DNA of 64,000 nucleotides from a virus, in the IMG/VR virus record IMGVR_UViG_3300046791_000258, positions 4,649 to 68,648 of that record, one strand, 5' to 3'. The notes under the pieces were generated by a model, which ran no database searches, was not told the origin of the DNA, and worked only from the letters and a program-made list of their open reading frames with translations. Of the stretch, positions 11,873-64,000 are shown piece after piece. Position numbers and translations under genes: made by a program. Numbering within the stretch: the first letter of the stretch is position 1; the number at the start of each line of letters is the position of its first letter.

Positions 11873-13975
11873 ATGACCATGCAGTCCCAGCGCGACGCCG
11901 ACCGCCAGGAGCGTGAAGCTCGCCGCCGCGAGCAGGGCCAGACGGCGTTTAGCGGGCCTTCCTGGTGGCAGCGCAACTTCGGGGGTGTGGACCCCACCCA
12001 TCCCAGCGAACGTGCCCAGAAGGCCTGGGACAGCTCCATGGACGAGTTTATCCGGTCCGGCCGCTACGCCGCCCAGAACCCGCTCGGGCGCCTCGACGAC
12101 CAGAGCCGCACGGCGGCCTACGATCCGATGGCCGACTACCCCGATCCGCGCAACGCCCAGCCGGTCGACTTCAGCGGTCGGACCTTGTGGGACAACGGTC
12201 CGATGGCCAATCAGGGCCAGCCGGTGACCAAGCTGTCGACGGCGCCGGCGATCGCCAAGAAGATCAACGCCACCCTGCAGCCGCAGCCGTCGTCGAACTA
12301 CGACGTGCCGCCCGACGCCTACTCGCCCGACCGCGGGGTCCAGCCGCAGTTCTCGGACAACTACGACGTGCCGCCCGACGCCCAGGCAGCGCCGGCGCCC
12401 CAGGCCTATGCCGGCACCCGCTACCCCGATGAAGACTATCTGCCACCTAGTTGGTGGCCGACGGCGGCGGCGGTGGCGCCCAGCGTGCCACCCCGGGTGC
12501 CGCGGCCGGTCCAGGCGGGCATGATCCCGCCGGCGTGGCTCGACGCGGCGAGCTCGTGGTTCCGGCGCAAGAAGGCCGAGGGTGGTCCGGTCGGCTACGC
12601 CGAGGGCGGACGACCGGATCTGAGCGGCTTCATGCCGCTGACTGCCTTTGGCGGTCCCGGCAAAGTAAGTGCGGCGCATGCGGTGGTCGGTCAGAACGCA
12701 CCGATGCCGACGGGATCGCTGGCGGGCGCGCGGAGCGGCGGCGCCGACGACGGCATGAGCAAGGGTACGTCGGCGATGCTCGGCAACATGATCAAGGGTT
12801 TCCGCAAGGGTGCCAACCCCGACAGCGACATCGATCAGCAGATCGCCGACTGGTCGAAGTATTACGATGGCGGTCCGGTGCGGGGCTACGCCCAGGGCGG
12901 CATGTTCGAAGGCGACATGAACACTGAGGGCGCGCTCGGCATGCTCGATCCGGCGGCCGGTTTGATCGGTGGCATCTTGGGCGGCGGCAAGGAAGGTGGC
13001 GGTGGCCTTGGCGATATCGCCAAGCTGCTGTCGCCCCTGGGGATGCTCCTGGGCGGGGGTGGTGGCGGCGGTCTGTTCGCGCACGGTGGACCGGTCGGCT
13101 ATGCCGGCGGCGGCGGCATCGAAGATTTCCTGGGCGGTGATGCTCTGGGCGGTCTCGGCAAGCCGCAGGACGACGACGACTTCAAGCCGCTGTCGGCGTT
13201 CGGTGCGCCGTCGAATATCGGCGAGAGCCACGCGGTGGTCGGCCAGAACGCGCCGGCGCCGTCGATGGGAGGCGGTGGTGGAGGCGGCGGCAGCAGTGGT
13301 GGAGGCGGTGGCGGCTTCGGCGACATCCTGAAGATGGGCATGTCGATCTTGCCTGCGGTGCTGCCGATGTTCAGCGACGAGCGGCTCAAGGACAACATCA
13401 AGCCGGTGGGCAAGACGCGCTCGGGCATGAAGGCGATCCAGTTCAACTACAAGGGATCGCCGCACACCCAGATCGGCTTGTCGGCGCAGGACGTCGAGAA
13501 GAAGCGGCCCGAGGCAGTCGGCGAGGTCGGCGGCTACAAGACGGTCGACTACAAGAAGGCGCTGATGGCGTTCGGTGGTCCGATCCCGATGATGCGCGGT
13601 GGCTATCCCGAGCTCTACACGCGGCCGACCCGCAAGACCTTCTCAACCGGCGGCGGCGACAACTACGTGCGGCCCGACGGGCGTGGCAATGGCCGCAGCG
13701 ATCACATCGATGCGTCGCTCTCTCCAGGCGAGTTCGTGATGGATGCCGAGACGGTGTCGCTGGCCGGCGACGGCGACAACGATGCTGGCGCGCGCCAAAT
13801 GGAGAACCTGCGCAAGAACATTCGCGTCCACAAGGGCAGGCAGCTCGCCAAGGGCAAGTTCTCGCCCAAGGCGAAGCCGGTCGAGAGCTACATGAGCCCC
13901 AAGCTCACGGCGGCCGATCGTGCGGCGCATGCCGGCATGAGTGAAGGTCTTGGTCAGATCGGGAGGCGCAAGTGA
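11873..13975 (+). CDS. Internal virion protein with GG repeats and an internal peptidase S74-like domain
   Basis: FSDERLKDNIKPVG...QIGLSAQDVEK..PEAV...VDY at about 13370-13560; C-terminal GRSDHIDASLSPGEFV domain; multiple xAxGGPV motifs. Confidence 0.7.
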   Translation: MTMQSQRDADRQEREARRREQGQTAFSGPSWWQRNFGGVDPTHPSERAQKAWDSSMDEFIRSGRYAAQNPLGRLDDQSRTAAYDPMADYPDPRNAQPVDFSGRTLWDNGPMANQGQPVTKLSTAPAIAKKINATLQPQPSSNYDVPPDAYSPDRGVQPQFSDNYDVPPDAQAAPAPQAYAGTRYPDEDYLPPSWWPTAAAVAPSVPPRVPRPVQAGMIPPAWLDAASSWFRRKKAEGGPVGYAEGGRPDLSGFMPLTAFGGPGKVSAAHAVVGQNAPMPTGSLAGARSGGADDGMSKGTSAMLGNMIKGFRKGANPDSDIDQQIADWSKYYDGGPVRGYAQGGMFEGDMNTEGALGMLDPAAGLIGGILGGGKEGGGGLGDIAKLLSPLGMLLGGGGGGGLFAHGGPVGYAGGGGIEDFLGGDALGGLGKPQDDDDFKPLSAFGAPSNIGESHAVVGQNAPAPSMGGGGGGGGSSGGGGGGFGDILKMGMSILPAVLPMFSDERLKDNIKPVGKTRSGMKAIQFNYKGSPHTQIGLSAQDVEKKRPEAVGEVGGYKTVDYKKALMAFGGPIPMMRGGYPELYTRPTRKTFSTGGGDNYVRPDGRGNGRSDHIDASLSPGEFVMDAETVSLAGDGDNDAGARQMENLRKNIRVHKGRQLAKGKFSPKAKPVESYMSPKLTAADRAAHAGMSEGLGQIGRRK

Positions 13976-16461
13976 GCAAGCGGCGCACGGCGTTCGGTCC
14001 TCCGCGGCGCAAGCGCGGGCAGAAGGGTATGTTCCTGGGCGGCCTGTTTGGCGCCGGCAGCACCGCGGGTCCAAGCAGCTCGGGATCGTCGAGCAGCACG
14101 ACGTCGACGCAGATCGATCCGGGCGGCAACTACACGCCGCTGATGGAGTCGGTGCTCGGTGTCGGCCAGGGCCTGCTCAACAAGCAGTACGAGGGCTACG
14201 ACCCGTCCAAGCGCTTCGAAGGCTTCAGCGCCGACCAGACGGCGGCGCAGCAGGGCGTGCGCGACGCCCAGGGCAACTGGCAGCCCAACTTCAATCAGGC
14301 GCAGACCGCGTTGAATGCTGGTCAGGCCGGCGCCGCGGGTGTCGGTGCGGCAGGCCAGACGGCGTTTGGTACTGCGGCGGCAGGCCCTGGTGGTCTCGGT
14401 GCAGCCAACCCGTACCTCAACAAGGCGAGCGGCAGCTGGACCGATCCAGGCACCGCCAGCGCCTGGATGAACCCCTACACCAAGAACGTCACCGACGCGA
14501 CGGCGCAGCAGGCGAACGAGGCGTTCCGCGGGCCCGGTGGTGCTCTCGAAGGTCTCACCGGTGCGTTCACCGGTGGCGGCGCCGCGCAGTTCGGTCGCGA
14601 GCGCATGGGCGACGTCGCGGGCAAGCTCTCGGCCGACTTCGGCCGCGGCCTGACGCAGTCGCTCGCGACGGTCAACCAGCAGGGCTACAACCAGGGCCAG
14701 ACGGCGTTCGGCAACGAGCAGCAGCGCATGGGCCAGCTCGGCCAGACCGCCGGCGGCCTGGGCGTGCAGGACGTCCAAGCGCAGACCAACCTGGGAACCG
14801 CTCAGACCAACGCGGCGGCCACCGGCGCGCGTTCGAACATCGAAGCGGGGCAAGCCCAGTCGAAGATGGGCCAGGACACTTCGGCGGCGGCCTACAAGGA
14901 CGCCTCGATGCTCGGCACCAGCGGCGCCACGCAGCAGGCGTTCGGCCAGCAGGCGAAGGACTTCGACTACCAGCAGAACCGCGAGGCCTACAACTGGGAC
15001 TTCCAGCGCGCCCAGCAGGCGCAGAGCTTGGCCCAGGGTTGGCAGCTGCCGACCACGACCAACAGCACGACGAGCACCCAGCAGCAGACCACCCAGCCGA
15101 GCGGCTCGGTGGCCGGCAACATCCTGGGAGCGGCGACGGCGATCGGCGGTCTGTCGACCGGCAAGGACACCACGGTGGCCGGCGACGTCGGCACGTGGCT
15201 GGGCAAGCAGACCGCGGCCGAGGGTGGTCACATCCATGCGGCAACGGGAGGCCACCTCGCGTTCGGTCCAGGTGGTCAGGTGCCGGTCACCCGCGCGGTA
15301 CGAGCGCGCGCCCAGCGCCGGCAGCCGGCGATCATGGCCCGCCTGCAGGCCATGGGAGGGCCTGGGATCACGCCCGGCCAGACCCCCGGTATGATGCCGC
15401 CACCCACCGCGTTCGCGTCTGGCGGCCGGGTTTACCCGGTCCAGAGCCGGACCAAGGACTACGAGCTCTATCATCCCTCGATGTGGCAGGAGGACTGGAG
15501 CGGCCTCGGCTGGGCGCGCGGTGGGCAGGTCGATGACGACGCGCATGATCGCGAGATGATCCGCAACGCGGTGTGGGCGCACGAGCGCGCGATGCACGAT
15601 GCCAACGATCGCCAGCTGACGGCGCTCAAGCGCTTCGCCTTCGGCGGGCCGGTCGGCTATGCCGAGGGCGGCTCGTCGAACTTCATCCCGGTCGGTGGCG
15701 GCACTCGTGTGGCGCCGACGGCGTTCGATGACATGCGCGATCCGCGCGTCGATCCGGCGCCCACGAGCATGATGGTGCTGCCGATGGATATTCTGGGCGG
15801 TGCAGCGACCGGAGCGGCTGGCACCGGCCAGGGCGGTGTCGGAGGTGCGGGTGCCGATGCGGCGTCGGAGGGCAGCGCGGCCGCAGGCACCAGCGGCGAT
15901 GCCGGCAGCGACGGTGGTGGCACCTACGCCTTCGGTGGTCGAGCTCGCTACGACGAAGGCGGCCCGAGCGACACCAGCGACTGGTTCGCACAGCGCGATG
16001 CGATGCGTCGAGCCAACCTGCGCCAGCGCTTGATGGAGAGCACGCTGCGCAACAGCGAACACGAGAGCGAAGCTCGCGCCGATCCGGCCGGCTATTGGGC
16101 CGACACTTCGAAGCAGTTCGCGCGCGGTCTGCTGAGCCCGACCACGTTGCTCGGCGTTCCTGGCAGCGCGCTCAACATGTGGCGCGACTTCGCTGATCTC
16201 GAAGGCAAGTCGTCATTGCCGACCTACAGCGGCATGAACCGCTTCCTCGACAACACCTTCGGTGATCCACGCACGGCCGGCGGTCGTGGGGGATCGGAGG
16301 CGGGTCGCACGTTGGCCAATGCCTTCGGTGTCGGTGCTGGCAATCGTGTTGCCAGTGGCATCGGTGGCCTGAGCAGGTTGGGCCGCACCCTGGCAGGCGC
16401 AGCTCCCTTCGGTGACGCCTGGAACCTCGGCAACGTCCTGCAAAGCGCGTTCGGTGATTGA
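13972..16461 (+). CDS. Internal virion / DNA ejection (pilot-like) protein
   Basis: Gln/Gly/Ala-rich helical region with WMNPYT; GG motifs in the C-half. Confidence 0.65.
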   Translation: MSKRRTAFGPPRRKRGQKGMFLGGLFGAGSTAGPSSSGSSSSTTSTQIDPGGNYTPLMESVLGVGQGLLNKQYEGYDPSKRFEGFSADQTAAQQGVRDAQGNWQPNFNQAQTALNAGQAGAAGVGAAGQTAFGTAAAGPGGLGAANPYLNKASGSWTDPGTASAWMNPYTKNVTDATAQQANEAFRGPGGALEGLTGAFTGGGAAQFGRERMGDVAGKLSADFGRGLTQSLATVNQQGYNQGQTAFGNEQQRMGQLGQTAGGLGVQDVQAQTNLGTAQTNAAATGARSNIEAGQAQSKMGQDTSAAAYKDASMLGTSGATQQAFGQQAKDFDYQQNREAYNWDFQRAQQAQSLAQGWQLPTTTNSTTSTQQQTTQPSGSVAGNILGAATAIGGLSTGKDTTVAGDVGTWLGKQTAAEGGHIHAATGGHLAFGPGGQVPVTRAVRARAQRRQPAIMARLQAMGGPGITPGQTPGMMPPPTAFASGGRVYPVQSRTKDYELYHPSMWQEDWSGLGWARGGQVDDDAHDREMIRNAVWAHERAMHDANDRQLTALKRFAFGGPVGYAEGGSSNFIPVGGGTRVAPTAFDDMRDPRVDPAPTSMMVLPMDILGGAATGAAGTGQGGVGGAGADAASEGSAAAGTSGDAGSDGGGTYAFGGRARYDEGGPSDTSDWFAQRDAMRRANLRQRLMESTLRNSEHESEARADPAGYWADTSKQFARGLLSPTTLLGVPGSALNMWRDFADLEGKSSLPTYSGMNRFLDNTFGDPRTAGGRGGSEAGRTLANAFGVGAGNRVASGIGGLSRLGRTLAGAAPFGDAWNLGNVLQSAFGD

Positions 16462-16463
16462 TC

Positions 16464-17969
16464 ATGGCTGAGCCCGATCCCTACGCCGATCCCTATGCCT
16501 CGCCAGCTCCGGTCACGGTCCAGGCACCACCGCAGGACTACGGCAACCCGAGCGCCTACGCGCCGATGCTCGAACGCCACCAGACGGCGTTCAACGAGCG
16601 CGAGAAGGAGCGGCAGCAGATCGAGGCCAAGCAGCAGCTCAACACCGACCAGATGTCGACCCTCCTGGAGGACGCGGCGAAGACCATCCGCAAGAGCCGC
16701 GAGGGCCGCTCGAACCTGCCGATGATCGCGCTCGGCGCCGGCATGATGGGCACGCCTGGAGACTTCGGCACCCAGGTCGGTGCCGGCCTGCGCGCGATGG
16801 TGCCGCAGATCCAGAAGCAGCGCGAGGACGAGGACAAGACCGAGCTGACGCTCGCTGAGCTGGGCACCAAGGCGGGCGAGATCCGCAACATGCCGCTCAA
16901 GACCAAGCTCGACTATCTGAAGGCGATCCAGCTTGGCGATATCGCGACGATCCGCGCCATCGAGACCGCGCAAGTGCGCGCCCAGGCGCAGCAGGGCAAC
17001 AAGAGCGGCACGCTCGATCTCAACACCCAGAAGGCGCACGCCGCGGTGATGCAGAAGGCCTCGGCCGAGGCCTTCAAGCAGCTCCAGGAGCTGAACAAGG
17101 ACAACGACTACACCCAGGAGGAGATGCAGAAGGTCTACTCCGATCTGCTCAAGCAGCAGATCACTCTCCAGGCGGGCGCGTCGGGCATGCAGCTCAACGA
17201 CGAATACGTCAACAAGGCGCTGCAGGCGCAGATGCCGGGTATGGGTGTCGCGTCCAACCAGTTCCCCAATCTGGCCGACATGAAGGCAGAGGGCGAAAAG
17301 GAAGGCCTGCCGGCGATGCCGCCGACCTACGACACGATGGGCGCCAAGGATCGCAGCAAGCAGCGCCTGAAGGAGGCTGAGGCTTACCGCAAGGAGAGCA
17401 CAAAGTGGGACGAGCAGGCCGGCACTGACAAGACCATGGACAACGACCTGCGCGAGGCCCAGGCGATCATCCAGGCGAACCCCGATCTGATCGGCAAGAT
17501 CAAGGGTCGCGGTTGGAACATATCGCCGGAAGCGGATCGTCTGGCGAAGATCCTGGCGCGTCTCGAAACTACCAGCGTACCCAAGGGCCAGGGGCAGATC
17601 ACCGACTTCGAGCGTCGGCTGTTCAAGGAAGCGCTGCCGACGATGACCAGCAACCCGGAGGCTGCGTTGCGCACTCTCCAGGTGATGCGCGACGCCAACA
17701 ACCGCAGCTCCGAGCAGCGCGCGTTTATGGACAAATACTACCGCACCTATCGCACGCTCGAAGGCGCGAACACCAAGTGGGAAGAGTACATGAAGTCGCC
17801 GACCGGCTCCTACGTGACCGAGCAGGGCGGCAAGCTGGTGCCCAACGCCGATCGGATGTCGTCCGACATCTACTTCAAGTGGCAGCGCATGGGCTCGCCG
17901 GAAGTTCGCCGGGGGCCAAACGGCGAGTGGATGGTGCGTCGCGACGGTAAGGTCGAGGTGCTGAAGTGA
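16464..17969 (+). CDS. Internal virion / ejection protein
   Basis: Coiled-coil rich; GQGQITDFERRL motif typical of ejectosome-like proteins. Confidence 0.6.
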   Translation: MAEPDPYADPYASPAPVTVQAPPQDYGNPSAYAPMLERHQTAFNEREKERQQIEAKQQLNTDQMSTLLEDAAKTIRKSREGRSNLPMIALGAGMMGTPGDFGTQVGAGLRAMVPQIQKQREDEDKTELTLAELGTKAGEIRNMPLKTKLDYLKAIQLGDIATIRAIETAQVRAQAQQGNKSGTLDLNTQKAHAAVMQKASAEAFKQLQELNKDNDYTQEEMQKVYSDLLKQQITLQAGASGMQLNDEYVNKALQAQMPGMGVASNQFPNLADMKAEGEKEGLPAMPPTYDTMGAKDRSKQRLKEAEAYRKESTKWDEQAGTDKTMDNDLREAQAIIQANPDLIGKIKGRGWNISPEADRLAKILARLETTSVPKGQGQITDFERRLFKEALPTMTSNPEAALRTLQVMRDANNRSSEQRAFMDKYYRTYRTLEGANTKWEEYMKSPTGSYVTEQGGKLVPNADRMSSDIYFKWQRMGSPEVRRGPNGEWMVRRDGKVEVLK

Positions 17970-19879
17970 CCGACCTCAACGACCTGTGGGAGACTGCCCG
18001 ACCGGTGCAGCCTGGAGGCGGCACGACGGCTGGCACCACCGGGCCGCGGCAGCCGCAGCAGCAACCCAACACCACCACCGTGGCGCCGGTCGACGAGCAG
18101 TGGAATGCCGCCAAGCCGGTGAACCCCGACTACGGCAGCACCGCGGTGCCAGTGACGGCACCCGATGCGACGTCGGCGCCGCACGACCCCTCCTGGGCCG
18201 AGGCGGGGAAGGCGATGGTTGACCCTCGCAAGATCAAGGAATCGCTTGCTCAGATGGGCCAGGACATCGTCGAGGGTGGCAGCAAGGCGGTACACGATCT
18301 GGTCGCTGACCCCCTGGGCGACATCGACAAGAGGCTGAAGCGATCGGCGAAGTTCCTCGGCTCGCCTGGGCTGAGCTTCGCGCTGCCGTTTATGAACGAG
18401 GAGATGCAGGCCAAGGTCAAACAGGTGATGGGTGGAGCGGCGCCGGAAGGCGATCCGATCGTCCAGGCTCTGATCGAGCGCTACGGCAGCCTCGATAAAT
18501 TGCGCAACACGATGTTCAAGGATCCCGGCGGCACGTGGCTCGACATCGCGTCGATCTTCGCCGGCGGCGAGAGCTTGGCAGCGCGCGGTGCGGCGCAGGG
18601 CGTGCGAGGTGCGGGGACGACGGCGAAGATTGCCGGCATCGGCGCGCGTCTCGATCCGATCACGCTGGCGGCGCGCGGCATCCCCGAGATCGGCCTCCCA
18701 GGCCTTGAGAGCGTGGCGTCGAAGGCGATCCCCAAGACCCTGGGCTGGCGCTCGGGCGTTGGGCCCGAGGTCATCACCGACATCAAGGACATCCACAAGC
18801 CGGGCAGTGAGTCCTGGAACAAGTACGGCGAGGAGGGCCCCAAAGACTTCAACGACGCCTTCAAGGGCAACGTCACGCCACGTCAGGTCGTCGACCGTGC
18901 CGAGCAGGGCATCGACAATATGCGGAGCAGCGCCAACCTCGGCTACGGCCTCAACAAGGACGAGTGGCTGAACGCTGGTGGCAAGCTCGACATGTCGGTG
19001 ATCGATCAGGCCGAGAACGACATGCGCGCGAGCCTGCACACCAGTGGCGGGTCGAGCCTGCTCAGCGAGGAGCAGCGTAAATCTTTCACCAAGATGCAGG
19101 AAATCATCGACGAGTTCCGCAAGCGCGGTCCTGGTGGCTGGACGGTCGAAGAGATGGACGCGCTAAAGCGCAACCTCAACAAGATCTCGGTGCCGCTCGG
19201 CGATCGCGAGCTGCTGCGTGTCAGGACGGCTCTCTCCAATTCGGTGAAAGACAACATCCTGGCCAATGCGTCGGGCACCAAATACCACGAGTCGATGGGT
19301 CAGTATCAGGCGGCGATGACTGACCTCGATGAGATGAAGAGCGCGCTGTCGCTCGGTAAGGATGCGCCTCAACACACCGTGATGTCGAAGCTGCAGTCGA
19401 TCCTGCGCAACAACGCGGCGACACAATACGGCACACGTCAGGGGCTGTTCGATCTCCTGGAGAAGGAGGGCGGCGTTCGTCTCAAGCCGTGGTTGCTCGG
19501 CATGGCGACCAACGTCGATGCGCCGCGCGGCATCACCGGCGCGATCGCTGGCGGTGGCGGCGGTGGTGCAGGCCTTGGCGCTGCTACCGGTATGCTTTTG
19601 GGCGGCCCGGGCGGCGCTGCGGCGGGCGCCGGTGCGGGCGCCATTCTTGGTATACCGATGGCGATGGCTGACATGTACGCGCGATCGCCGCGGGTTGCTG
19701 CTCGTGTTGGCAGGACGATGGGGGAGCACGGCGACGCCTTCTCGGAGGCCTTCCCCCTGGCGCGCTACGGCGCCTATTCAACCGGCCACGAGAATCGGGA
19801 GGAGGATGAGAAGAAGCGCCAGCACAAGGCGACCGGGGGCACTGTGCGAAAGGCGGCGTTTTCCAGGTACACGAGATGA
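17966..19879 (+). CDS. Internal virion / DNA transfer protein
   Basis: Helical, with a Gly/Ala hydrophobic stretch followed by SPRV; terminal HKATGGTV. Confidence 0.6.
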   Translation: MTDLNDLWETARPVQPGGGTTAGTTGPRQPQQQPNTTTVAPVDEQWNAAKPVNPDYGSTAVPVTAPDATSAPHDPSWAEAGKAMVDPRKIKESLAQMGQDIVEGGSKAVHDLVADPLGDIDKRLKRSAKFLGSPGLSFALPFMNEEMQAKVKQVMGGAAPEGDPIVQALIERYGSLDKLRNTMFKDPGGTWLDIASIFAGGESLAARGAAQGVRGAGTTAKIAGIGARLDPITLAARGIPEIGLPGLESVASKAIPKTLGWRSGVGPEVITDIKDIHKPGSESWNKYGEEGPKDFNDAFKGNVTPRQVVDRAEQGIDNMRSSANLGYGLNKDEWLNAGGKLDMSVIDQAENDMRASLHTSGGSSLLSEEQRKSFTKMQEIIDEFRKRGPGGWTVEEMDALKRNLNKISVPLGDRELLRVRTALSNSVKDNILANASGTKYHESMGQYQAAMTDLDEMKSALSLGKDAPQHTVMSKLQSILRNNAATQYGTRQGLFDLLEKEGGVRLKPWLLGMATNVDAPRGITGAIAGGGGGGAGLGAATGMLLGGPGGAAAGAGAGAILGIPMAMADMYARSPRVAARVGRTMGEHGDAFSEAFPLARYGAYSTGHENREEDEKKRQHKATGGTVRKAAFSRYTR

Positions 19880-20751
19880 GCGACATCTGGGGCGCCGACG
19901 ACGAGGAGAGCCCGCTCAGCCCGTTCAGCGCGGGCGTAGGCGCCGGCATCAATCCGGCGGTCAGTCGCGTGCGCCGCAGCTTCTTCACGCCGGTCGGCGT
20001 CACGGGCAAGAAGATCCCGCTCAGCAAGGCGATCACTGCCACCGCGCCCAAGGTTGACATGCCGTCGATCGCCAAGAGCCAGAGCTCGTCGTCGGGTGGT
20101 GGTGGCAGCGATGCCGGCGGTATCATGGGCGGCATCGCCAGCCTGTGGAACGCGCCGTTCGAACAGAAGCGCGCCCAGGAGAAGACGGCCGAGGTCGAGA
20201 AGCTGCGCCGCGATGCGCTCGCGATGGCTGCGTCGAACAAGGCGCCGGTGGTTACTTCCGACGACGCCGCATCGACGTCGAGCGGCACGACCGGCGGCGT
20301 GCCCCAGGGCATGCCCCTCCCAGGCGGCAGCTACGAGGCCAAGGCGCGCGCGCTCGAATCGGGTGGCAACGATGCTGCGGTCAACGCATCGGGCGCAGCC
20401 GGTCGCTATCAGTTCATGCCGAGCACGGCCGAGGGACTGATCAAGGCCAACCCGCATCTCAACATCAGCTCGAACTGGAGGACCAACGCCGACGACCAGG
20501 AGAAGCTGATGAAGGTCTACACCGACACCAGCCGCGAGCTCCTGCGCAAGGCCCTGGGGCGTGAGCCGACCGGCGGCGAGCTGTATGCTCTGCACATGTT
20601 CGGGCACGGCAAGGGCCCGACGATCGTGGGCGCGGGGAACGCGCCGCTCGCTTCTGTGACCAGCGAAGCGGAGCGCTCGGGCAATCCGTGGCTTAAGCGC
20701 TTTGCGACAGCTGCTGACCTGATGGCGTACTTCAACAAACGATTCAGTTAG
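19876..20751 (+). CDS. Virion-associated lysozyme-like / lytic transglycosylase protein
   Basis: LESGGN...SGAAGRYQFMPST...LYALHMFGHG lysozyme-fold motifs. Confidence 0.75.
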   Translation: MSDIWGADDEESPLSPFSAGVGAGINPAVSRVRRSFFTPVGVTGKKIPLSKAITATAPKVDMPSIAKSQSSSSGGGGSDAGGIMGGIASLWNAPFEQKRAQEKTAEVEKLRRDALAMAASNKAPVVTSDDAASTSSGTTGGVPQGMPLPGGSYEAKARALESGGNDAAVNASGAAGRYQFMPSTAEGLIKANPHLNISSNWRTNADDQEKLMKVYTDTSRELLRKALGREPTGGELYALHMFGHGKGPTIVGAGNAPLASVTSEAERSGNPWLKRFATAADLMAYFNKRFS

Positions 20752-24272: not shown

Positions 24273-24280
24273 GAGAAACT

Positions 24281-24541: not shown

Positions 24542-24544
24542 GCG

Positions 24545-24781: not shown

Positions 24782-24790
24782 GAGGCTGCC

Positions 24791-25095: not shown

Positions 25096-25101
25096 CCGGC
25101 G

Positions 25102-25127
25102 GCCCCAGGCGAGCTCCCGCCTGGGGC
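25102..25127. terminator. Hairpin between convergent genes
   Basis: GCCCCAGGCG / CGCCTGGGGC 10-bp stem. Confidence 0.5.
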
Positions 25128-25134
25128 ACACTGC

Positions 25135-25563: not shown

Positions 25564-25615
25564 ACAAACCTCCTTGGGGGTTCCCCCATTCAGAATCCTA
25601 CCTTAGTGTAGAGCG

Positions 25616-47940: not shown

Positions 47941-48759
47941 ATGCAGATCAAGATCACCCCGGCTATCCAACAGCTCATCGACGACGGCGCCCTGTTCGCC
48001 ATTAATCACAGCGGTGGCAAGGACAGCCAAGCGATGGCGATCGAGCTGGAGAAGATCATCCCCAAGGCGCAGCTGGTCTACGTGCACGCTGACCTGGGCC
48101 GCATCGAGTATGAGGGCACGCTGGCTCATGCCAAGGCCCAGGCCGATGCCGCCGGCATCCCCTTCCTGGTCGCCAATGCGGTCTACAAGGATGGCAAGGC
48201 CAAGACGTTCTTCAATTATGCCGAGCATCGCAAGGAAGTGAACCCGACCGCCCCGAGCTTCCCCTCGGCCAACGACGCGCGGTGGTGCACCAGCGAGCTC
48301 AAGCGCGATCCGATCAACCGCGTGCTGCGCCAGTACGCCAACAAGCACGGCTTCAAGGCGATCGTGAGCTGCCAGGGCATCCGCGCCCAGGAGAGCACGA
48401 GCCGCTCGAAGAAGCAGCCCTGGGCGGTCGAGGATCGCCTGGACTGCGCCAAGCGCGCCGGCTTCGTGTGGTACCCGATCTTCGAGATGTCGGTCGCCCA
48501 GGTGAAGGCGGTGGTGGCCGAGGCCGGCCAGCAGCTGCACCCGGCATACGCCGCGGGCAATGATCGGCTGAGCTGCGTGTTCTGCATCATGGCCAGCGAC
48601 AACGACATCCTGAACGGCGCCCTGGCCCGCCCCGAGCTGCTGGCCGAGTACATCGCCCTCGAAGAGAAGCTTGGCTACACCATGCACGTCAGCCGTCGCA
48701 GCCTGGGACAGATCGTGGCCGACGCCCAGGCGGCCGCGGAGCTGCCGATGGCAGCCTAG
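47941..48759 (+). CDS. PAPS-reductase-family (PP-loop) protein
   Basis: HSGGKDS, RWCTSELKRDP, GIRAQES..R, YPI, HPAY..G.DRLSCVFC. Confidence 0.88.
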   Translation: MQIKITPAIQQLIDDGALFAINHSGGKDSQAMAIELEKIIPKAQLVYVHADLGRIEYEGTLAHAKAQADAAGIPFLVANAVYKDGKAKTFFNYAEHRKEVNPTAPSFPSANDARWCTSELKRDPINRVLRQYANKHGFKAIVSCQGIRAQESTSRSKKQPWAVEDRLDCAKRAGFVWYPIFEMSVAQVKAVVAEAGQQLHPAYAAGNDRLSCVFCIMASDNDILNGALARPELLAEYIALEEKLGYTMHVSRRSLGQIVADAQAAAELPMAA

Positions 48760-57722: not shown

Positions 57723-58165
57723 TGAATTTCGAGTATCACTTTCCAGGGGCCGTGAAGTGGGAAACCTTCATTACCAGGACAGAGGTCGGTCGCGCGTTGC
57801 ATTACTGCGAGGTGCCGCTCACTAAGACCGGGCGAAAGTCGCCGCTCAAGCAGCGAGCAATTAGGATCTGTTTGTATTTGAACCTGGAGACCCGCAAACA
57901 GGTCGAAGATTATCCGTTGCACGAGTTCCTGCTGCAGCCCGATGCCGGTCCGGCTACGCTGCGCTTCCTCTATCAGATGTTGAATCTTCCGGTGCCGTTG
58001 TTCCTGCTCGACCGGAAATCTCGGATACCGCCCGACATGGAGCGCAAGGTCCGCGCGTTCATGAAGGAAACCGGCTACGGCTGGATCCAGTTGCGTTCGC
58101 TGGTCGGCCATGTGCTGGCGCGCCTCGATCCTGATCGAGATCCTGAAGAGGAGGATAAGAATTGA
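57722..58165 (+). CDS. Hypothetical protein
   Basis: Coupled ORF, AT-richer codons. Confidence 0.55.
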   Translation: MNFEYHFPGAVKWETFITRTEVGRALHYCEVPLTKTGRKSPLKQRAIRICLYLNLETRKQVEDYPLHEFLLQPDAGPATLRFLYQMLNLPVPLFLLDRKSRIPPDMERKVRAFMKETGYGWIQLRSLVGHVLARLDPDRDPEEEDKN

Positions 58166-58560
58166 GCCTCGATCGACAGAAGGCTTTTGCGCTCGCCCAT
58201 CCGGTGTTCGATCCGCAGAAGCAGATCCTGACCGGCCACGGCTGGCCGATCGATCGTCACACCAGCGGCGTGCTGACCGTCAACATCGGCATGGAATGAA
58301 GCGTCTACGCCCAGGGGCGGCCGCTGTGGCATCTGTCACTGTCGCCGCAGCCCCGGGTGCCGGTGTCCCGTTGGGACCGCGCTACACGCCGCCGCATCGA
58401 AGCGATCAGGGACAGCATCATGAGCCGCCTGGGGACCAACGAAGCACTGATCGAGGAGCGAGGCGACGTGCTGCCTCACTGGCGAAAGCCGCTGACCTTG
58501 GCCGAGGTCAACCAGATGGCGCAGACCCCCGAGGTCCGCGCGCGCCCTGGGCGCCCGTGA
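58162..58560 (+). pseudogene. ORF interrupted by a single in-frame TGA (58297-58299)
   Basis: GAGGAGG SD, TTG start, continuous protein-like frame either side: ...LTVNIGME*SVYAQGRPLWHLSLS... Confidence 0.55.
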
Positions 58561-58727
58561 TGCGTGACATGGTCGCCCTGGTGCTGCTGGTGATCGGCGC
58601 CTCGCTGCTGTTCTTCGGCGTCATGTTGGCGCTCGAAGGGTCGGAGATGTGGCCGATCTCGGGTATCGTGTCGTTCATCGGCGGCCTGGGCATCGGTTTC
58701 GGAAGTTGGACGTTGCTGACGAGGTAG
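58560..58727 (+). CDS. Small two-TM membrane protein (holin candidate)
   Basis: MRDMVALVLLVIGASLLFFGVMLA...SFIGGLGIGFGSW; near the endolysin. Confidence 0.5.
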   Translation: MRDMVALVLLVIGASLLFFGVMLALEGSEMWPISGIVSFIGGLGIGFGSWTLLTR

Positions 58728-58729
58728 CA

Positions 58730-59059
58730 ATGAGCAAGCAACAGTATGTCGAGGACTGCGTCGGCTGCCGGCCGGTCGCGGTCGACCTGCAGACCGGCCA
58801 GCCGTGCGGCGAGGATCATCCGCTGTCGCGCGCGCTCGCCCGGGTGTGGGGGCAGATGGGACCGCTGCACAAGGCGGCGTTCCACCGCGTGACCTGCCTG
58901 AGCAGCCGCAACCCGCTCGACCTCGCCCTGGCCAAAGAGTACATCACCAGGGTCAAGGCGGCGGCGCTTAAGGAACAAGGCAATGGGAACCTACCTGACC
59001 CACCACTTCAGCCTGGAGGAGATGACGGCAAGCCAGACGGCAAGCCGGTGCTCCATTGA
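58730..59059 (+). CDS. Hypothetical protein
   Basis: GAGG SD; overlaps the endolysin 5' end. Confidence 0.5.
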   Translation: MSKQQYVEDCVGCRPVAVDLQTGQPCGEDHPLSRALARVWGQMGPLHKAAFHRVTCLSSRNPLDLALAKEYITRVKAAALKEQGNGNLPDPPLQPGGDDGKPDGKPVLH

Positions 59060-59429
59060 CAACGATCCCACCGACCAGCAGCTCGTCGAGCTGACGCGCA
59101 CCTGCCAGATGCTGGAGCTGGTGCGCGCGCTGTTCGGCCAGCCGATCCTGATCAGCTCGGGCTATCGCTGCGAGGCGCTCAACGAGGAGTGCGGCGGCTC
59201 GGAGAACAGCCAGCACTGCCTGGGGCAGGCGGCAGACTTCACCAGCCCGGCGGCCGGCACGCCGCGCGAGATCTGCGAGCGGATCGTTGCCGACGGCATG
59301 ATCCCGTTTGACCAGTTGATCCTGGAGTACGGCGACTGGGTGCATATCTCGCAGCCCGGCATTGGCAACCAACCGCGCCGTCAGGTATTGACGATCGACG
59401 AGACCGGCACCCGCGAGGGGCTGCATTAA
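58983..59429 (+). CDS. Peptidase M15 (M15_3-like) endolysin
   Basis: HFSLEEM..S.TA...IDN.P; ISSGYRC..LN...GG..NSQH..GQAADF; FDQLILEY..WVHIS. Confidence 0.88.
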   Translation: MGTYLTHHFSLEEMTASQTASRCSIDNDPTDQQLVELTRTCQMLELVRALFGQPILISSGYRCEALNEECGGSENSQHCLGQAADFTSPAAGTPREICERIVADGMIPFDQLILEYGDWVHISQPGIGNQPRRQVLTIDETGTREGLH

Positions 59430-59440
59430 GGGGTTCGCAC

Positions 59441-59611
59441 ATGCCGCTGCAGAAGACCGGAGGCAAGGCCTCCATCGGGCCCAACATCAAGACCGAGATG
59501 GCCGCCGGCAAGCCCAAGAAGCAGGCGGTCGCGATCGCCCTCGACGTGGCGCGTCGCCAGGGCACCAAGATCCCGCCGATCCCCAAGGTGGGCAAGGCGC
59601 GTGGCCGCTGA
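59441..59611 (+). CDS. Small basic conserved phage protein
   Basis: MPLQK...NIKTEMAAGKPKKQAVAIALDVARR. Confidence 0.65.
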   Translation: MPLQKTGGKASIGPNIKTEMAAGKPKKQAVAIALDVARRQGTKIPPIPKVGKARGR

Positions 59612-60643
59612 TGGCCAACGTGGTCGCTGACTTCAAGGACGGTCTGGGCAACCTTGCCCACGCCATCCAGTGGGACGGCGACCTGATCGATACTTGGGCT
59701 AACATTCACGCCTGGACCAAGCGCGCCAACATCAATCACAGGGGCGTGTTGGCGATCCAGACGGGAGCGATCAATTTGAATGTCGGGGTCGGCGACTGGA
59801 TGGTGATGGACAGCTCTAAGAACCCCCAGGTGTTTTCGATGACCGATCCGCAATTTCAATCGACCTACACGGCTACTACACCCTGAAGGAGGCGAGCATG
59901 GGCTACGTGTTGAAGGACGGCAGCGGCGAGATCGAGGCCAAGAAGCTCGATCCGGCGAGCTCCAGTGCCGAGCAGCTGGCGGCGTGGTGTGGTGGCGTGG
60001 TCTCCAATGGCGGCATGGCCTACGCGACGCTGACCCTGCCCAACGGCGAGATCGTCCACTCGGGCGACTGGGTGCTGGTCAAGGACGGCGTGGCGACCAT
60101 GGTGAACGAGGACAAGATCCGCGAGCTCGCCTACCTGCCCGAGCCGACCGAGGCTGAGCTGGCGGCCAAGGCGGCGGCTGAAGAGGCCGCGGCCAAGAAG
60201 GCCGAGGAGGATGCTGCCAAGGCGGCCGCCCAGGAGGCCGGTGTCGCTTACGTTCCACCGGCGGCATGAGCAGCCAGCTCACCGACGAGCAGACCGCCCA
60301 GGAGACGCCGCTCGACCGAGGCAAAGACATCGAGGTGACGCTCACCTTCAGGGTCTCGGCCGAGGCGATCGACCGGCTGCTGCCGCGCAACGCGACGCGG
60401 CGGCAGTTCGAGGCGGCGCAGGCGACGCTCCTGGCGGCTGGGCTCTACACCCGGCTCCAGGTGCTGCGCGATCTCCAGCACACCGAGAAGGTCGATGTGT
60501 TGGTCGCTCCAGGCGTGGTCAACGTGCCTGGGATGCGGCGCAAGGAGGAGCTTAAACAGGCCGGCAGGTACGCCCAGGTGGCGCTCACGCACCTGGAGAC
60601 GGTGGCGCTGTGGTCGGACAAGGCGGTGGTCTGGACCCTCTAG
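59611..60643 (+). other. ORFs 59611-59886, 59898-60269 and 60266-60643; the first two share a W...G..L...G...GDW.V SH3-like pattern
   Basis: SD and coupled starts; shared pattern. Confidence 0.6.
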
Positions 60644-60709
60644 ATCGCCTATTTTGGGCCGCCCGGGGGCAAGTCGGGCGCCATCGATCCCTAGCAAGGC
60701 ATCGCCCTC

Positions 60710-63700
60710 ATGCCGCGCGACCATATCCGAGACTTCTACGCGAAGGGCGGCTACATCAAGCCGCAGACCGACCGCAAGGGCGAAGCCCTGGCGCGGGTGA
60801 AGTACGACCTCGGCGGTCCGGTCCTGGCTGCGGCCAATCCTAGCAGGACGGTGCTGCCGCTGATGCGGTGGACCGAGAAGATGTGGGACAAGCTGCCCGA
60901 CCTGCGCAAGGCGGCGCTGCAGAAGGTCGGCCTGCACGGGCTCAAGGAGGGGACCGAGGCGTTTATCTACGGCCGCGACCCGAGCAACACTATCGATGCC
61001 AGCACGCCCGGCTGGATGTCGAAGATGACCAAGGGCGATTCGGGCTCGGTCGACCTGCCGCCGTCCTACATGAAGTTCACCAAGAGCCCAGGCTCGAAGC
61101 CCGGCGTTGGCCAAGCCTGGAACGTGCACAATCACCCTGGTGTCGATTCGACGGCGATGCCGTCGAGCGTCCCAGGCGACTACGGCACGTGGCTCAACCC
61201 CAGTGCCAACCGGTTTTTTAGCTACCCGGAGGGCAGCGCGCGGCCGTGGCAGGACATGATGATCGTGGCGCCGCGCAACGATCAGCTGTTGCAGATCGAT
61301 GCGCCCAACAATCTGTGGGAGCAGCCGGCGCAAACGTCTGGGCTGTGGAACCGCAATCAGCGCCTGACCAAGAAGTTCATCGAGGAGACCCAACCCAGCC
61401 GCTGGCTCTACAACCAGGATGGCACTGGCGCCGGTGTTACGGGCCAGATGAACCTGATCGAGGAGTGGGCCAAGGCGCATGGTGTTGGGTTGCCGCGCAT
61501 GGACCCGCTGCATGACATCGACCCCAAGACCGGCGAGCGCATGGAGCCGGTGATGGGCAAGCAGTTCTGGCCGGTCTACCAGAGCCTCGCCGGCGGCCGC
61601 TGGATGGATCGCATGGGCGATCTCGGCGTCGGTACCGAGATGGATGCGGCGACCAAGCTGCCCAACACCGGCGTCAACCTGCGCGACGCCTTCGAGAGCT
61701 ACATCCCGCTGGCCAAGCAGAAGTTCGGCTTCGACGTCGGCGGTCCGGTCAGGGCGACCCAGAAGGCTTTGCGCTTCCTCAATCGCTACGCCGATCCGGC
61801 GAGCGAGGTGATCAAGGACTGGACCTGGAAGCCGATCAAGGAGGCGATGCGGTCGCTCCCAGGCGGGGTGCCGCGCGAGATCCCCGAGCACGTGCTGAAC
61901 TACGGCGACTTCATGCGGCGTGCTGCTGGCAAGGTGGAGGACGAAGGTCTCGCACCGCGCGATCTCCTGAAGGCCTACACGACCACGCTGTCATCGATCC
62001 AGCGCCAAGCGATCAATCGTGACAACCTCCCAGGCATCAAGCTGAGCTCGCCCGACCAGCTGATCAGGCCCGAGGGTGCGTTCGCCGATTGGCTGGGCTC
62101 GCCGGCCGGCCAGAAGTACCTGTTGTTCGGCTCGCAGGGCGAGGCGCACCCCGAGGCCATCGCCGACGCGGCGAAGAACATGCGGTCGTTCGGCCTGCAC
62201 AACAAGCTCGCCGAGGATCTCACCGAGGCGCCGCAGCGCATCCTGGGTCTCGATACGCCGATGTCGGATGTCATCACGCGCGCCATGCAGGGTGCCAGCA
62301 CGCCTGCCGAGTGGGCCGAGGTGACAGACAAGCTGAAGGGCATCGATGCCGCCAAGAAGGGCTTCGTCGGCGCGATGGTAGGCTACGGCGACCGGCCGAC
62401 GCTCGATGCACGACAGCTCGGTATCCACACTTACGATCCCGAGGCGCTCTCGAAGTTCGGCCGGCGTCAGCGTGGCCAGGGCGGCGAGGATGCGGTGGCG
62501 CGTCTGGCGGCTCGACAGAACGCTCTCAACATGTCGATGCCCAGCGAGTACGAGCCGTTCCGGCAGCACCTCACCCATCACACGCTTTGGGATGCCGCCA
62601 AAGATACCCAGACGTCGCACGGTGACATCATCGACATGATGGAGAACCGCTCGCGCGGCGGTCGTGTCGGCTTCGACATCGGCGGCAACGTGCAGCGCGG
62701 CGCCAAGATGGCGGCTAAGGCGGGGCAAGCGCTGGAGCGCATGTACAGTGGCAGCCTGTTCGAGAAGTGGGCGAAGGACACCGGTCGCACTGCCGAGGAG
62801 CTGGTCGAGGCACTGCGTACCAAGAACCCCAATGTCCAGAAGGACCGCGACATCCAGGCGATGCGTGGCGTCAGCGACCGCATGGATCCTAACCTCTACG
62901 CCGGCACCAAGGTCGACATGACCCAGCCGGCGCCGCTGATGCGTCCGACCATCAGCCCGGAGGATATGAGGGGCGGCTACGTGGTCGGCGGCATGTCCGA
63001 TCTGTCGTCGGCAGGTCCGACGATCCGCGGCATCAACGACATCGCGATGCGCAAGCCGATCTGGATGCCGGGCGGCTCCGATTTCCCGGTCTACAATCCA
63101 GATCTGTGGGCGGGTGCTCCTGGCGCGCTGAGCGGTCTCACCAATGCGTTGTCGAGTGCCGGCTGGAAGCCGGGCAAGAACCAAGCCTATTTCGCCAACC
63201 AGCTGATGCTGCCTCAGGCGGTCGACCAGACGCACATGGCGATGGAAGCAGCGCTCTCGATGCTGCAGCAGTCAGGTCTCTCGCGGAAGGAGGCTGGGGC
63301 CTTCAACGACGCGGTGCGCAATTTCAAGATCAGCGTCAATCCGACCAAGGCCGATCCGCGGCGCACGGTCGAGGCGATGCCTGACTTCCCCGGCATCAAC
63401 AGCGCCAACATCGACGAGTACATTGCCAACACGCCGATGGCACGGCGTGCGGCGCTGCTCAAGGTGATGGACAAGAAGGCTATGAACGATATCGGCGTGC
63501 CGAGCTCGTCGTCGATTCGGGCTGCGCTCACCGATCCGACGCTGGTCGGCGCACCGCAAGGCACCACCGGTCGCACCATTGGGCGGCTGGCCGACGATCC
63601 GATCATCACCGATCCGATTATCCCGCACGAGAGCTACAGTTCCAACTTGGGTGGCGACTTCCTGGGGGGCTTCGGCAAGAAGGTGCCGGGCCAGCTTCTG

Positions 63701-64000
63701 TTCAAGGACTGGGTGAAGGAGAAAGGCTTCGATCCCAACAACATGAGCAGCAACGACATGCGCTCGATGATCATCAGCCCGGCCGTGCAGAAGATCGACC
63801 AACGCTTCCTCGACTGGTTCATGCCCAAATACGAGAAGCTGCCCGACTGGAAGCGTGGTGGTCGTGTGGGCTATGCCTCGCTTGGCTCAGTGAAGAAGCT
63901 AGGCAGCGCTGCCGAAAAGGCGCTCAACCGGATCCGCACCTATCACGGTTCGCCGTATCTCTACGACAAGATCGATCCGGCCAAGATCGGCAGCGGCGAG
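60710..64000 (+). CDS. Large polyvalent protein (JAB + HhH-GPD-like + unknown + ART-PolyVal), open at the window end
   Basis: Manual translation from ATG 60710 found no stop to 64000; HNHP.....PS...D at 61127; LKGIDAAKKGF...GYGDRPTLD at 62333; YHGSPYLYDKID..KIGSGE at 63941. Confidence 0.8.
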   Translation, partial: MPRDHIRDFYAKGGYIKPQTDRKGEALARVKYDLGGPVLAAANPSRTVLPLMRWTEKMWDKLPDLRKAALQKVGLHGLKEGTEAFIYGRDPSNTIDASTPGWMSKMTKGDSGSVDLPPSYMKFTKSPGSKPGVGQAWNVHNHPGVDSTAMPSSVPGDYGTWLNPSANRFFSYPEGSARPWQDMMIVAPRNDQLLQIDAPNNLWEQPAQTSGLWNRNQRLTKKFIEETQPSRWLYNQDGTGAGVTGQMNLIEEWAKAHGVGLPRMDPLHDIDPKTGERMEPVMGKQFWPVYQSLAGGRWMDRMGDLGVGTEMDAATKLPNTGVNLRDAFESYIPLAKQKFGFDVGGPVRATQKALRFLNRYADPASEVIKDWTWKPIKEAMRSLPGGVPREIPEHVLNYGDFMRRAAGKVEDEGLAPRDLLKAYTTTLSSIQRQAINRDNLPGIKLSSPDQLIRPEGAFADWLGSPAGQKYLLFGSQGEAHPEAIADAAKNMRSFGLHNKLAEDLTEAPQRILGLDTPMSDVITRAMQGASTPAEWAEVTDKLKGIDAAKKGFVGAMVGYGDRPTLDARQLGIHTYDPEALSKFGRRQRGQGGEDAVARLAARQNALNMSMPSEYEPFRQHLTHHTLWDAAKDTQTSHGDIIDMMENRSRGGRVGFDIGGNVQRGAKMAAKAGQALERMYSGSLFEKWAKDTGRTAEELVEALRTKNPNVQKDRDIQAMRGVSDRMDPNLYAGTKVDMTQPAPLMRPTISPEDMRGGYVVGGMSDLSSAGPTIRGINDIAMRKPIWMPGGSDFPVYNPDLWAGAPGALSGLTNALSSAGWKPGKNQAYFANQLMLPQAVDQTHMAMEAALSMLQQSGLSRKEAGAFNDAVRNFKISVNPTKADPRRTVEAMPDFPGINSANIDEYIANTPMARRAALLKVMDKKAMNDIGVPSSSSIRAALTDPTLVGAPQGTTGRTIGRLADDPIITDPIIPHESYSSNLGGDFLGGFGKKVPGQLLFKDWVKEKGFDPNNMSSNDMRSMIISPAVQKIDQRFLDWFMPKYEKLPDWKRGGRVGYASLGSVKKLGSAAEKALNRIRTYHGSPYLYDKIDPAKIGSGE

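Follow-up and report, generated by a model that had tools for sequence, protein, structure and literature searches.

Polyvalent proteins of phages and conjugative elements join several (2-15) independently occurring domains in one polypeptide; proteolytic processing has been proposed for them and credited to zincin-like metallopeptidase domains (Iyer et al. 2017, PMC5512222). Tape measure proteins, which like the internal proteins of podoviruses are ejected ahead of the DNA, are known to be cut in lambda (gpH to gpH* and gpHC) and in T5 (pb2 to pb2* and pb2C), and in the short-tailed phage P22 the ejection protein gp7 is trimmed by a host peptidase before assembly. Here we describe a 64,000-nucleotide stretch of viral DNA (the window; bases 4649-68648 of the 68,648-base IMG/VR record IMGVR_UViG_3300046791_000258, CheckV completeness 99%) in which a short di-glycine peptide recurs at the joints and ends of exchangeable modules in the products of three large open reading frames (ORFs), ORF 11873, ORF 13972 and ORF 60710. 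Written [FYW/K/R/M]-[A/D]-x-G-G-x-[V/I] and often doubled at a spacing of 8-9 residues, this motif is selected, widespread and confined to virion-internal or cargo proteins, namely two of ejection type and the polyvalent ORF 60710, a chain of four or more modules that also occur on their own, encoded just before the portal gene. The same peptide is found in the maturation region of the lambda tape measure protein gpH, and a variant with K/R stands beside a reported cut of T5 pb2. The words 'glycine', 'linker' and 'diglycine' have 0 occurrences in the main text of Iyer et al. 2017 (PMC5512222), and no description of the junction peptide was found in the literature, which was covered in part and in the main text only. 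Polyvalent proteins, ejection proteins and tape measure cleavage are each already known; the junction peptide that they share is not described in the literature covered.

Di-glycine is part of the maturation signal of virion polyproteins in other viruses, where the adenovirus protease and pS273R of African swine fever virus, both cysteine proteases, cut directly after G-G, as JAMM isopeptidases also do; no such enzyme was found in the present genome. A further parallel is the targeting sequence of phage T4, a short N-terminal tag that puts cargo into the prohead and is then cut off by gp21. The T4 tag and its cut site (after L/I-x-E) are unrelated in sequence to the motif described here, are read by the prohead protease, and occur once per protein, at the N-terminus. 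The proteins and motif sites of the present phage, with matrix scores in bits as defined below, are the following.

11873..13975, + strand: ORF 11873 (700 amino acids), Gly-rich, of internal or ejection type, bearing four motif clusters and, away from its ends, a Peptidase_S74 domain (intramolecular chaperone)
12572..12610, + strand: tandem motif KAEGGPVGYAEGG, ORF 11873 residues 234-246
12860..12901, + strand: tandem motif YYDGGPVRGYAQGG, ORF 11873 residues 330-343 (15.0 and 15.6 bits)
13076..13114, + strand: tandem motif FAHGGPVGYAGGG, ORF 11873 residues 402-414 (17.1 bits)
13373..13519, + strand: Peptidase_S74 domain (PF13884), ORF 11873 residues 501-549 (E 3.1e-07)
13565..13606, + strand: motif MAFGGPIPMMRGGY, ORF 11873 residues 565-578, directly after the S74 domain
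13972..16461, + strand: ORF 13972 (829 amino acids), helical core (about residues 45-365), then a linker- and motif-rich tail
15214..15282, + strand: motif cluster AAEGGHIHAATGGHLAFGPGGQV, ORF 13972 residues 415-437, in low-confidence segment 410-437
15412..15432, + strand: motif FASGGRV, ORF 13972 residues 481-487, in low-confidence segment 463-519
15511..15531, + strand: motif WARGGQV, ORF 13972 residues 514-520 (15.2 bits)
15634..15672, + strand: tandem motif FAFGGPVGYAEGG, ORF 13972 residues 555-567 (17.5 and 13.9 bits)
15925..15966, + strand: tandem motif YAFGGRARYDEGGP, ORF 13972 residues 652-665 (12.9 bits), in low-confidence segment 557-668
16458..17969, + strand: ORF 16458 (503 amino acids), no motif of its own, member of a chain of genes with 4-nt overlaps
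17966..19879, + strand: ORF 17966 (637 amino acids), one weak motif near the C-terminus
19823..19846, + strand: HKATGGTV, ORF 17966 residues 620-627 of 637, not significant alone
60710..64000, + strand: ORF 60710, first 1097 residues of a 1379-residue polyvalent-type protein
60734..60757, + strand: N-terminal motif FYAKGGYI, ORF 60710 residues 9-16 (15.8 bits)
60803..60823, + strand: motif YDLGGPV, ORF 60710 residues 32-38
61730..61750, + strand: motif FDVGGPV, ORF 60710 residues 341-347, 2-5 residues before module B
62648..62692, + strand: tandem motif RSRGGRVGFDIGGNV, ORF 60710 residues 647-661, end of module B
62963..62983, + strand: DMRGGYV, ORF 60710 residues 752-758, start of module C
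63848..63877, + strand: WKRGGRVGYA, ORF 60710 residues 1047-1056, end of module C (16.2 bits)
beyond the contig end: KARGGRV, ORF 60710 residue 1365 of 1379

When translations and nucleotide positions were recomputed, all 15 motif sites that a sequence-only reading of this DNA had listed lay in frame where it had placed them; sites beyond its list are DMRGGYV and KARGGRV (both in ORF 60710), MGEGGPVTYRAGGVV and YAGGGYV. By that reading, a motif no more frequent than in Gly-matched shuffled proteins would count against it; ORFs 11873, 13972 and 60710 show a clear excess, whereas ORF 17966 taken alone does not. Its pattern occurs 5 times in ORF 11873, 4 times in ORF 13972 and 5 times in ORF 60710 against shuffle means of 0.12-0.27, an enrichment of about 20-fold in these three of the four proteins, and none of the 1000 full shuffles or 1000 shuffles with Gly positions fixed that were made per protein equalled the observed count. 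For the single site of ORF 17966, the count was equalled by 116 of the 1000 full shuffles and by 184 of the 1000 with Gly fixed; the site is for that reason not evidence by itself and could be chance.

Two scans of the window show the same concentration. The pattern [FYW][AD]xGG occurs 16 times in a crude set of 79 ORFs, 14 of these in ORFs 11873, 13972 and 60710. A weight matrix trained on 381 [FYW]xxGG sites from homologues in other genomes, with a match defined as at least 12 bits, gives 14 matches in 82 ORFs (20,499 residues) against 1.02 expected; 12 fall in the same three ORFs and two elsewhere, a test that is not fully independent because the training proteins are homologues of two of the three. 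Across 389 aromatic-x-x-G-G sites in 181 proteins, Ala occupies position +1 in 46% (3.6-fold) and Val position +6 in 41% (10.3-fold). The same sites have a further Gly-Gly 5-6 residues upstream and Val 3 upstream, a bias which arises because the tandem form G-G-x-V-(x)-G-[YF]-A-x-G-G is frequent. The copies within the window use differing codons, Gly codons included: the decapeptide GGPVGYAEGG is identical in ORFs 11873 and 13972, yet only 26 of its 30 nucleotides are alike. A repeat or recombination hot spot at the DNA level is thereby ruled out, and since the copies are not DNA repeats, selection acts on the peptide.

The motif is kept well beyond this phage. ORF 13972 has 349 relatives at E <=0.001, and in 150 of them the strict motif was observed 162 times against 18.9 expected, with at least one copy in 70; among 25 relatives of ORF 60710 the corresponding figures are 26 against 3.0, with at least one copy in 14. 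In a set of 44 proteins from this family, motifs are placed either ahead of the conserved core start, a hydrophobic F-L-G-G-L-F, or beyond about residue 395; only a weak RGPGGAL, at residue 186 of ORF 13972 itself, departs from this. Four of the 44 have no motif match, and copy number and spacing differ even among close relatives. We also scanned with the matrix all ORFs of at least 100 residues in 26 IMG/VR loci that contain an ORF 13972 relative and range in G+C from 36 to 67%. These loci give 50 matches against 4.6 expected (four near-duplicate loci contribute 8 between them), including matches in loci of 36-50% G+C, and 41 of the 47 matches that could be placed in gene order fall within the ORF 13972-family gene or its immediate neighbours.

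The placement of the motif relative to folded domains was examined in ORF 13972 with an AlphaFold model built from a 45-sequence alignment. Residues of the core (about 45-365) are helical, with a predicted local distance difference test (pLDDT) of 70-93. All six motif clusters lie in or at the edge of segments with pLDDT <50, with three short helices between them, and thus outside the confident core, which agrees with the expectation that the motifs occupy inter-domain linkers. The core has no PDB fold match at E <=0.001 (Foldseek), the best being coiled-coil proteins at E 0.48.

The module boundaries of ORF 60710 are likewise marked by the motif, as had been proposed. The reading frame continues across the contig ends and terminates 4 nt inside the portal gene (L001:873-3614). 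Its homology blocks occur separately in homologues, which is the multi-domain character of polyvalent proteins; it overlaps the portal gene by 4 nt and has the terminase upstream at 53649-55349, which is their virion-gene neighbourhood. We predict it to be a polyvalent-type cargo protein that would be packaged and delivered. Among its 25 homologues, the N-terminal module is present only in one (P0007), module B in 24 and module C in most; the last module is in none. Module B, as delimited by BLAST blocks, starts at residues 344-360, right after FDVGGPV, and exists elsewhere as a protein start, since 15 of the 25 enter the alignment at residues 4-7 of their own sequence, facing residues 349-352 of ORF 60710. 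Its block ends at residues 644-661 in 9 homologues, coinciding with the RSRGGRVGFDIGGNV pair. Where module C forms a block by itself, it starts between residues 725 and 833, in three cases at 748-754 (DMRGGYV lies at 752), and alignments through module C end at 957-1081, several near WKRGGRV (1047-1053); the last module ends 14 residues past KARGGRV. The N-terminal FYAKGGYI is kept in P0007 and similar in another homologue, P0008. Homologues fuse module B to InPase (PF18823), ART-PolyVal (PF18760; 25.5 bits, below cut-off), Amidase_2 or Hydrolase_2, and there too the motif stands at the joints. No module of ORF 60710 itself matches a named family in Pfam, PHROGs or NCBIfam, and no MuF or metallopeptidase domain was found in it, including the zincin-like type credited with processing in other polyvalent proteins. 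The sequence-only reading had seen the motifs between recognisable enzyme domains in this protein; such named domains are found only in the homologues.

Exchange of modules at the motif can be observed directly in related loci. In one of them a 1388-residue ORF (L006:1361-5524) carries the ORF 13972 core, then an S74 cassette, then the ORF 13972 C-terminal domain. The cassette has 59% identity to residues 475-572 of ORF 11873 and lies between FAHGGPV and RARGGSI, and the FAHGGPV ahead of it is the same as that in FAHGGPVGYAGGG of ORF 11873. This is direct evidence that the S74 cassette has moved between two motif-bearing proteins. In another locus (L007) a homologue of ORF 16458 runs on for about 720 more residues, the joint being marked by FKGGGQV, and the 522-residue ORF 16458 homologue of L006 has motifs at residues 16 and 509, whereas ORF 16458 of the window has none.

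In ORF 11873 the S74 domain is a sound match (31 bits, where the cut-off is 22, over positions 1-57 of the 58 in the profile) and opens S501-D-E-R-L-K506, so that the Ser...Lys pair is present. This pair we take from the family literature to be catalytic, and ORF 11873 may cleave itself at the S74 Ser. The occurrence of an S74 domain within non-fibre internal proteins is unusual. Residues 464-566 of the same protein match the PHROGs categories 'virion structural protein' and 'DNA ejection protein'.

The nearest known cleavages that bear on the motif are those of tape measure proteins, in which the same peptide, in the form [FY/R]-A-x-G-G-x-[V/M], lies in a Gly-rich, unstructured stretch of an ejected protein. 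Lambda gpH contains FATGGF (733-738) and YATGGYV (778-784), both within the Gly-rich C-terminal part where trimming takes place. When all six frames of lambda were scanned, no other match of at least 12 bits lay in an annotated frame, and YATGGYV is the best of the genome at 19.5 bits. Computed masses of gpH are 77.7 kDa at residue 710, 78.5 kDa at residue 720 and 79.9 kDa at residue 735; the first motif falls within gel error of the cut and is a candidate site. In the virion, gpH residues ~690-817, which include the motifs, are not resolved, and the enzyme that trims gpH was still unknown in 2025 (PMC12617516). T5 pb2 reads NSFVPR and then, across the bond, AEGGMMYPGVSYQMGEHGTEVV, so that AEGG directly follows R1127, and the cut has been placed after R1127, one residue before A-E-G-G (Linares et al. 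2023, PMC10038345). The alternative bond, at V1148 +/- 1, lies about 17 residues after the motif, so both candidate bonds are within about 20 residues of it; pb2 residues 2-1148 weigh 123.9 kDa, exactly the older measured value. Neither reported pb2 bond is a cut directly after G-G, and a cut after G-G in the style of adenain or JAMM is for that reason without precedent in the closest cases. The Arg of the T5 site (RAEGGMM) is comparable to KAEGGPV of ORF 11873, and residues 2-5 of KAEGGPVGYAEGG (AEGG) are the same as in that site.

The tape measure proteins differ from the present proteins in carrying one or two copies near the C-terminus rather than arrays of 4-6, in sitting in the tail tube and not the head, and in lacking sequence homology outside the motif: the families TMP_2, Tape_meas_lam_C, TMP_N and TMP_C match gpH and pb2 and no window protein (Pfam), and BLASTP of ORF 11873 against gpH and pb2 returns motif-sized pieces only (best E 0.08). 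A proposed kinship of the ORF 11873 C-terminus (...PGEFVMDAE...) with lambda ...RGEFVFTKE... is unsupported by BLASTP and NCBIfam and was set aside.

P22 gp7 is the parallel for an ejection protein. GenBank records for gene 7 that 20 amino acids at the N-terminus are removed by the host Salmonella OpdA protease, oligopeptidase A, and the same removal is given in a table footnote citing Conlin et al. 1992 (PMC4992974). The sequence at the cut is SYPE followed by KGGKGG, the bond thus lying just upstream of G-G; relative to the motif, the aromatic is four, not three, residues before G-G, and Ala and Val are missing. Since a host peptidase does the trimming of gp7, such maturation need not be phage-encoded.

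We tentatively favour the reading that the motif is a conserved signal for maturation or for junctions, carried by ejected proteins and read by a peptidase that is still to be named and is possibly the host's; we give it somewhat less than an even chance. It would be recognised in a limited proteolysis that takes place during assembly or on delivery and that trims or parts long module chains at the joints, as happens to tape measure proteins. Cleavage at the motif in the present phage is predicted from two tape measure proteins, lambda gpH and T5 pb2. The bond cut would more likely lie just before G-G, or some residues after it, than directly after it. The enzyme would not be the JAB-like stretch of ORF 60710, and a host peptidase may serve, with P22 gp7 and oligopeptidase A, and T5, as the precedents. 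A 1973 paper on T5 reportedly speaks of host involvement in its title. Oligopeptidase A is not known to take any but short peptides, which would suit terminal tags and hardly internal joints.

Several points weigh against this reading. The argument for cleavage draws on two tape measure proteins, and what had looked like a third mapped cut, in JBD30, was rejected since its authors only speculate from a predicted Arg-C site. The lambda cut is known from gel masses only and lies about 20 residues upstream of the first motif, +/- 20. The T5 bond is disputed between R1127, which is a trypsin site, and V1148 +/- 1 (PMC11937520), and the T5 site has R in place of the aromatic and falls below the matrix threshold. 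P22 has no matrix match in any annotated frame, its ejection proteins included, and the gp7 site bears only a loose likeness. The strict motif is absent from 80 of the 150 ORF 13972 relatives, and 10 of the 26 related loci have no matrix match. Low pLDDT is no proof of disorder, and a candidate protease was not found in the genome. Many motifs, finally, are 10-40 residues from protein ends (ORF 60710 residues 10, 32 and 1365 of 1379; ORF 17966 residue 621 of 637), where a cut would free only a small peptide, a placement that therefore fits a tag better than a separator.

The main alternative is that the motif is a docking or address tag which is not cut, its helix cap and short strand binding a common partner by strand addition; we regard this as possible and rather doubtful. 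Such a tag could bring cargo into the procapsid or to the portal, keep the internal stack in one piece, or build the ejected proteins into a trans-envelope conduit, and repeated copies would add avidity. Little would be gained by cutting at the extreme termini where motifs are found (ORF 60710 residues 10-16, 32-38 and 1365-1371 of 1379; ORF 17966 residues 621-627 of 637). ORF 60710, P0007 and P0008 resemble one another over their first ~30 residues and not just in the 7-residue core, even though P0008 goes on with a different module. These shared leaders and the many motifs near protein ends are the strongest arguments for a tag. In many ORF 13972 relatives, one or two copies lie within residues 5-105. 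The ORF 16458 homologue of L006 bears a copy at each end, and ORF 60710 adjoins the portal gene. The same peptide is, however, present in tape measure proteins, which are assembled in the tail and never enter the capsid, so that a single capsid receptor cannot cover all cases. The unresolved state of lambda gpH residues ~690-817 in the virion (PMC12617516) means that this region is not stably or symmetrically docked. These two points weigh most against a single capsid receptor. No partner was identified here. One peptide could be cleavage signal and tag at once; in T4 the capsid targeting sequence serves as an address and is also a leader that is cut off.

We consider it unlikely that the motif is a passive joint, that is, a flexible linker or helix cap that tolerates any neighbour and is spread by recombination with no reader. 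Cassettes are exchanged at motifs across proteins and phages, copy number and spacing vary even among close relatives, and the motifs lie in low-confidence linkers, all of which speak for such a joint. If the linker were passive, Ala at +1 (3.6-fold), Val at +6 (10.3-fold) and an aromatic at position 0 would not persist across a G+C range of 36-67%, and the unlike DNA of the copies means that homologous recombination within the motif is not favoured. Ordinary linkers between domains in this phage's other proteins also lack it, only two of the 14 matrix matches lying outside the three proteins.

The proposal of the sequence-only reading that a JAB domain at the N-terminus of ORF 60710 acts as an in-virion protease, cutting after G-G like adenain, pS273R and JAMM enzymes, fared poorly, and we consider it very improbable. 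It has in its favour the stretch H-N-H-P-G-V-D-S-T-A-M-P-S-S-V-P-G-D (residues 140-157), invariant in P0007, the sole homologue with this module. We take its pattern to resemble the JAMM/RadC metal site E...H-x-H-x(7)-S-x(2)-D, with the spacers between H140-N-H142, S152/S153 and D157 longer, at 9-10 and 3-4 versus 7 and 2. A second point for it is lambda gpK (199 amino acids, L005:1277-1876), which is needed for tail assembly and matches NlpC/P60 (E 3.4e-13) as well as, below the Pfam cut-off, part of Prok-JAB (E 6e-05; profile positions 63-112 of 114, the C-terminal half). Lambda gene K as annotated leaves a 148-base unannotated gap to the upstream gene L. A complex prediction of gpK with gpH residues 715-800 gave a score of 0.01, which is no answer and neutral on docking.

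ORF 60710 has no JAB, Prok-JAB or RadC match in Pfam at E <=1, where SLT_2 (E 0.12) is the sole entry. A genome-wide search with RadC (PF04002) at E <=10 came up empty, while the profile gives matches in 12 of 14 control genomes. The N-terminal module has no PDB sequence match, and a word-index search with residues 40-340 brought up no shorter homologue. For residues 1-347, AlphaFold on an alignment of 2 sequences gave an unusable model (mean pLDDT 30.6), and an Atlas search with residues 40-340 gave uninformative scores of 0.77. The module is present in one of 25 homologues (P0007), whereas the motif occurs in 14 of the 25 and in ORF 13972 relatives, and the motif is therefore independent of that domain. 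RadC-type JAB domains of polyvalent proteins have moreover been argued to lack the groove for the ubiquitin tail and to act on nucleic acids (Iyer et al. 2017, PMC5512222), and neither reported T5 bond lies after G-G. No other protease candidate was found in the genome, where the peptidase families seen are S74 (a self-processing chaperone) and an M15 endolysin.

The supposition that Gly-rich proteins of high G+C simply yield G-G words, matched by a pattern defined after looking, accounts for little more than the ORF 17966 site and a pair in the capsid protein, which could be chance, and is refuted for the other three of the four proteins, with next to no probability left to it, by the Gly-fixed shuffles (0 of 1000), by the recovery of the sites with a matrix from other genomes, by the bias at positions that do not anchor the pattern, and by motifs in loci of 36-50% G+C.

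The genome around these proteins is that of a phage of about 68.6 kb. The terminal 24 bases of the record (window 63977-64000) repeat its first 24 (L001:1-24) with one C/T mismatch, and the record for that reason closes on itself; the repeat is a circular permutation or an assembly overlap, although the IMG/VR class is linear. Other recognised features are listed here.

3285-4196: major capsid protein, Mu gpT/Phage_capsid_4 (family match)
3465-3509: MGEGGPVTYRAGGVV, tandem-looking pair at residues 61-75 of the capsid protein, within its capsid Pfam match (residues 26-298)
6732-7391: SU10-type adaptor
7298-11160: two tail or virion proteins
11418-11804: 128-residue ORF between the tail genes and the internal-protein block, PHROGs 'endonuclease' (phrog_2340, E 1.1e-10)
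19876-20751: SLT-type transglycosylase (profile match)
directly abutting the transglycosylase: 1014-residue ORF
47941-48759: 272-residue ORF of a phage PAPS-reductase-like family (phrog_424, E 4.5e-38)
53248-53529: 93-residue ORF just upstream of the large terminase, with YAGGGYV (16.5 bits)
53649-55349: large terminase
58983-59429: M15 peptidase, probably the endolysin
L001:873-3614, just outside the window: 913-residue portal ORF (Atlas features 0.97; structural template modelling scores of 0.62-0.67 to SU10/P22-like portals)

The portal ORF has no match in Pfam, PHROGs or NCBIfam and owes its identity to Atlas features and structure only; with the adaptor it is of SU10/P22 type, and the phage is on this basis probably short-tailed. 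A family A DNA polymerase, helicases and a primase-helicase are also recognised. The nearest cultured terminases are those of Caulobacter phages RW and RLK (45.7% identity), and the structural genes of RW are unlike those of the present phage. In tblastn against cultured phages ORF 13972 has no match and ORF 60710 two weak partial matches only, and a single-protein locus search of viral contigs with either protein found none.

Between the tail and replication genes, ORF 11873, ORF 13972, ORF 16458, ORF 17966 and the SLT-type transglycosylase form a chain of five genes (11873-20751) joined by four successive 4-nt overlaps (13972-13975, 16458-16461, 17966-17969 and 19876-19879), which suggests that the whole internal-protein block is translationally coupled. 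From its position and make-up we infer that the chain encodes internal or ejection proteins, the only direct support being the PHROGs matches 'DNA ejection protein' and 'virion structural protein' on ORF 11873. ORF 17966 has no family match in Pfam, PHROGs or NCBIfam. The 128-residue ORF upstream of the block may encode a homing-type endonuclease. The two loose-pattern matches of the capsid pair MGEGGPVTYRAGGVV were equalled by 3 and 7 of 1000 shuffles and could be chance or a hairpin loop of the capsid fold. The 93-residue ORF with YAGGGYV has a hydrophobic N-terminus with Cys, a body very rich in Tyr, Gly, Gln and Pro, and no family match; it may not be a real gene.

The motif brings together polyvalent cargo proteins, podovirus ejection proteins and tape measure trimming, fields that have been treated separately, in that one peptide spans all three. 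It predicts where termini should be sought in virion proteomics and which residues of gpH to mutate, and it suggests that hosts may contribute a maturation enzyme. In phage ORFs that are otherwise unrecognisable it offers a cheap annotation marker of virion-internal or ejected proteins and of module boundaries, and for phage engineering it points to places for module exchange. In a broader version, which we think improbable, the peptide would be a general maturation code of tailed phages with one conserved, phage-independent reader that would bind [aromatic/K/R]-A-x-G-G-x-V in unfolded linkers and could be a ubiquitous host peptidase like oligopeptidase A or some other enzyme of the cytoplasm. 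If so, it would explain the cleavages of lambda gpH and T5 pb2, would direct the trimming of tape measure proteins, podovirus ejection proteins and polyvalent chains alike, and would let phages swap injected modules freely.

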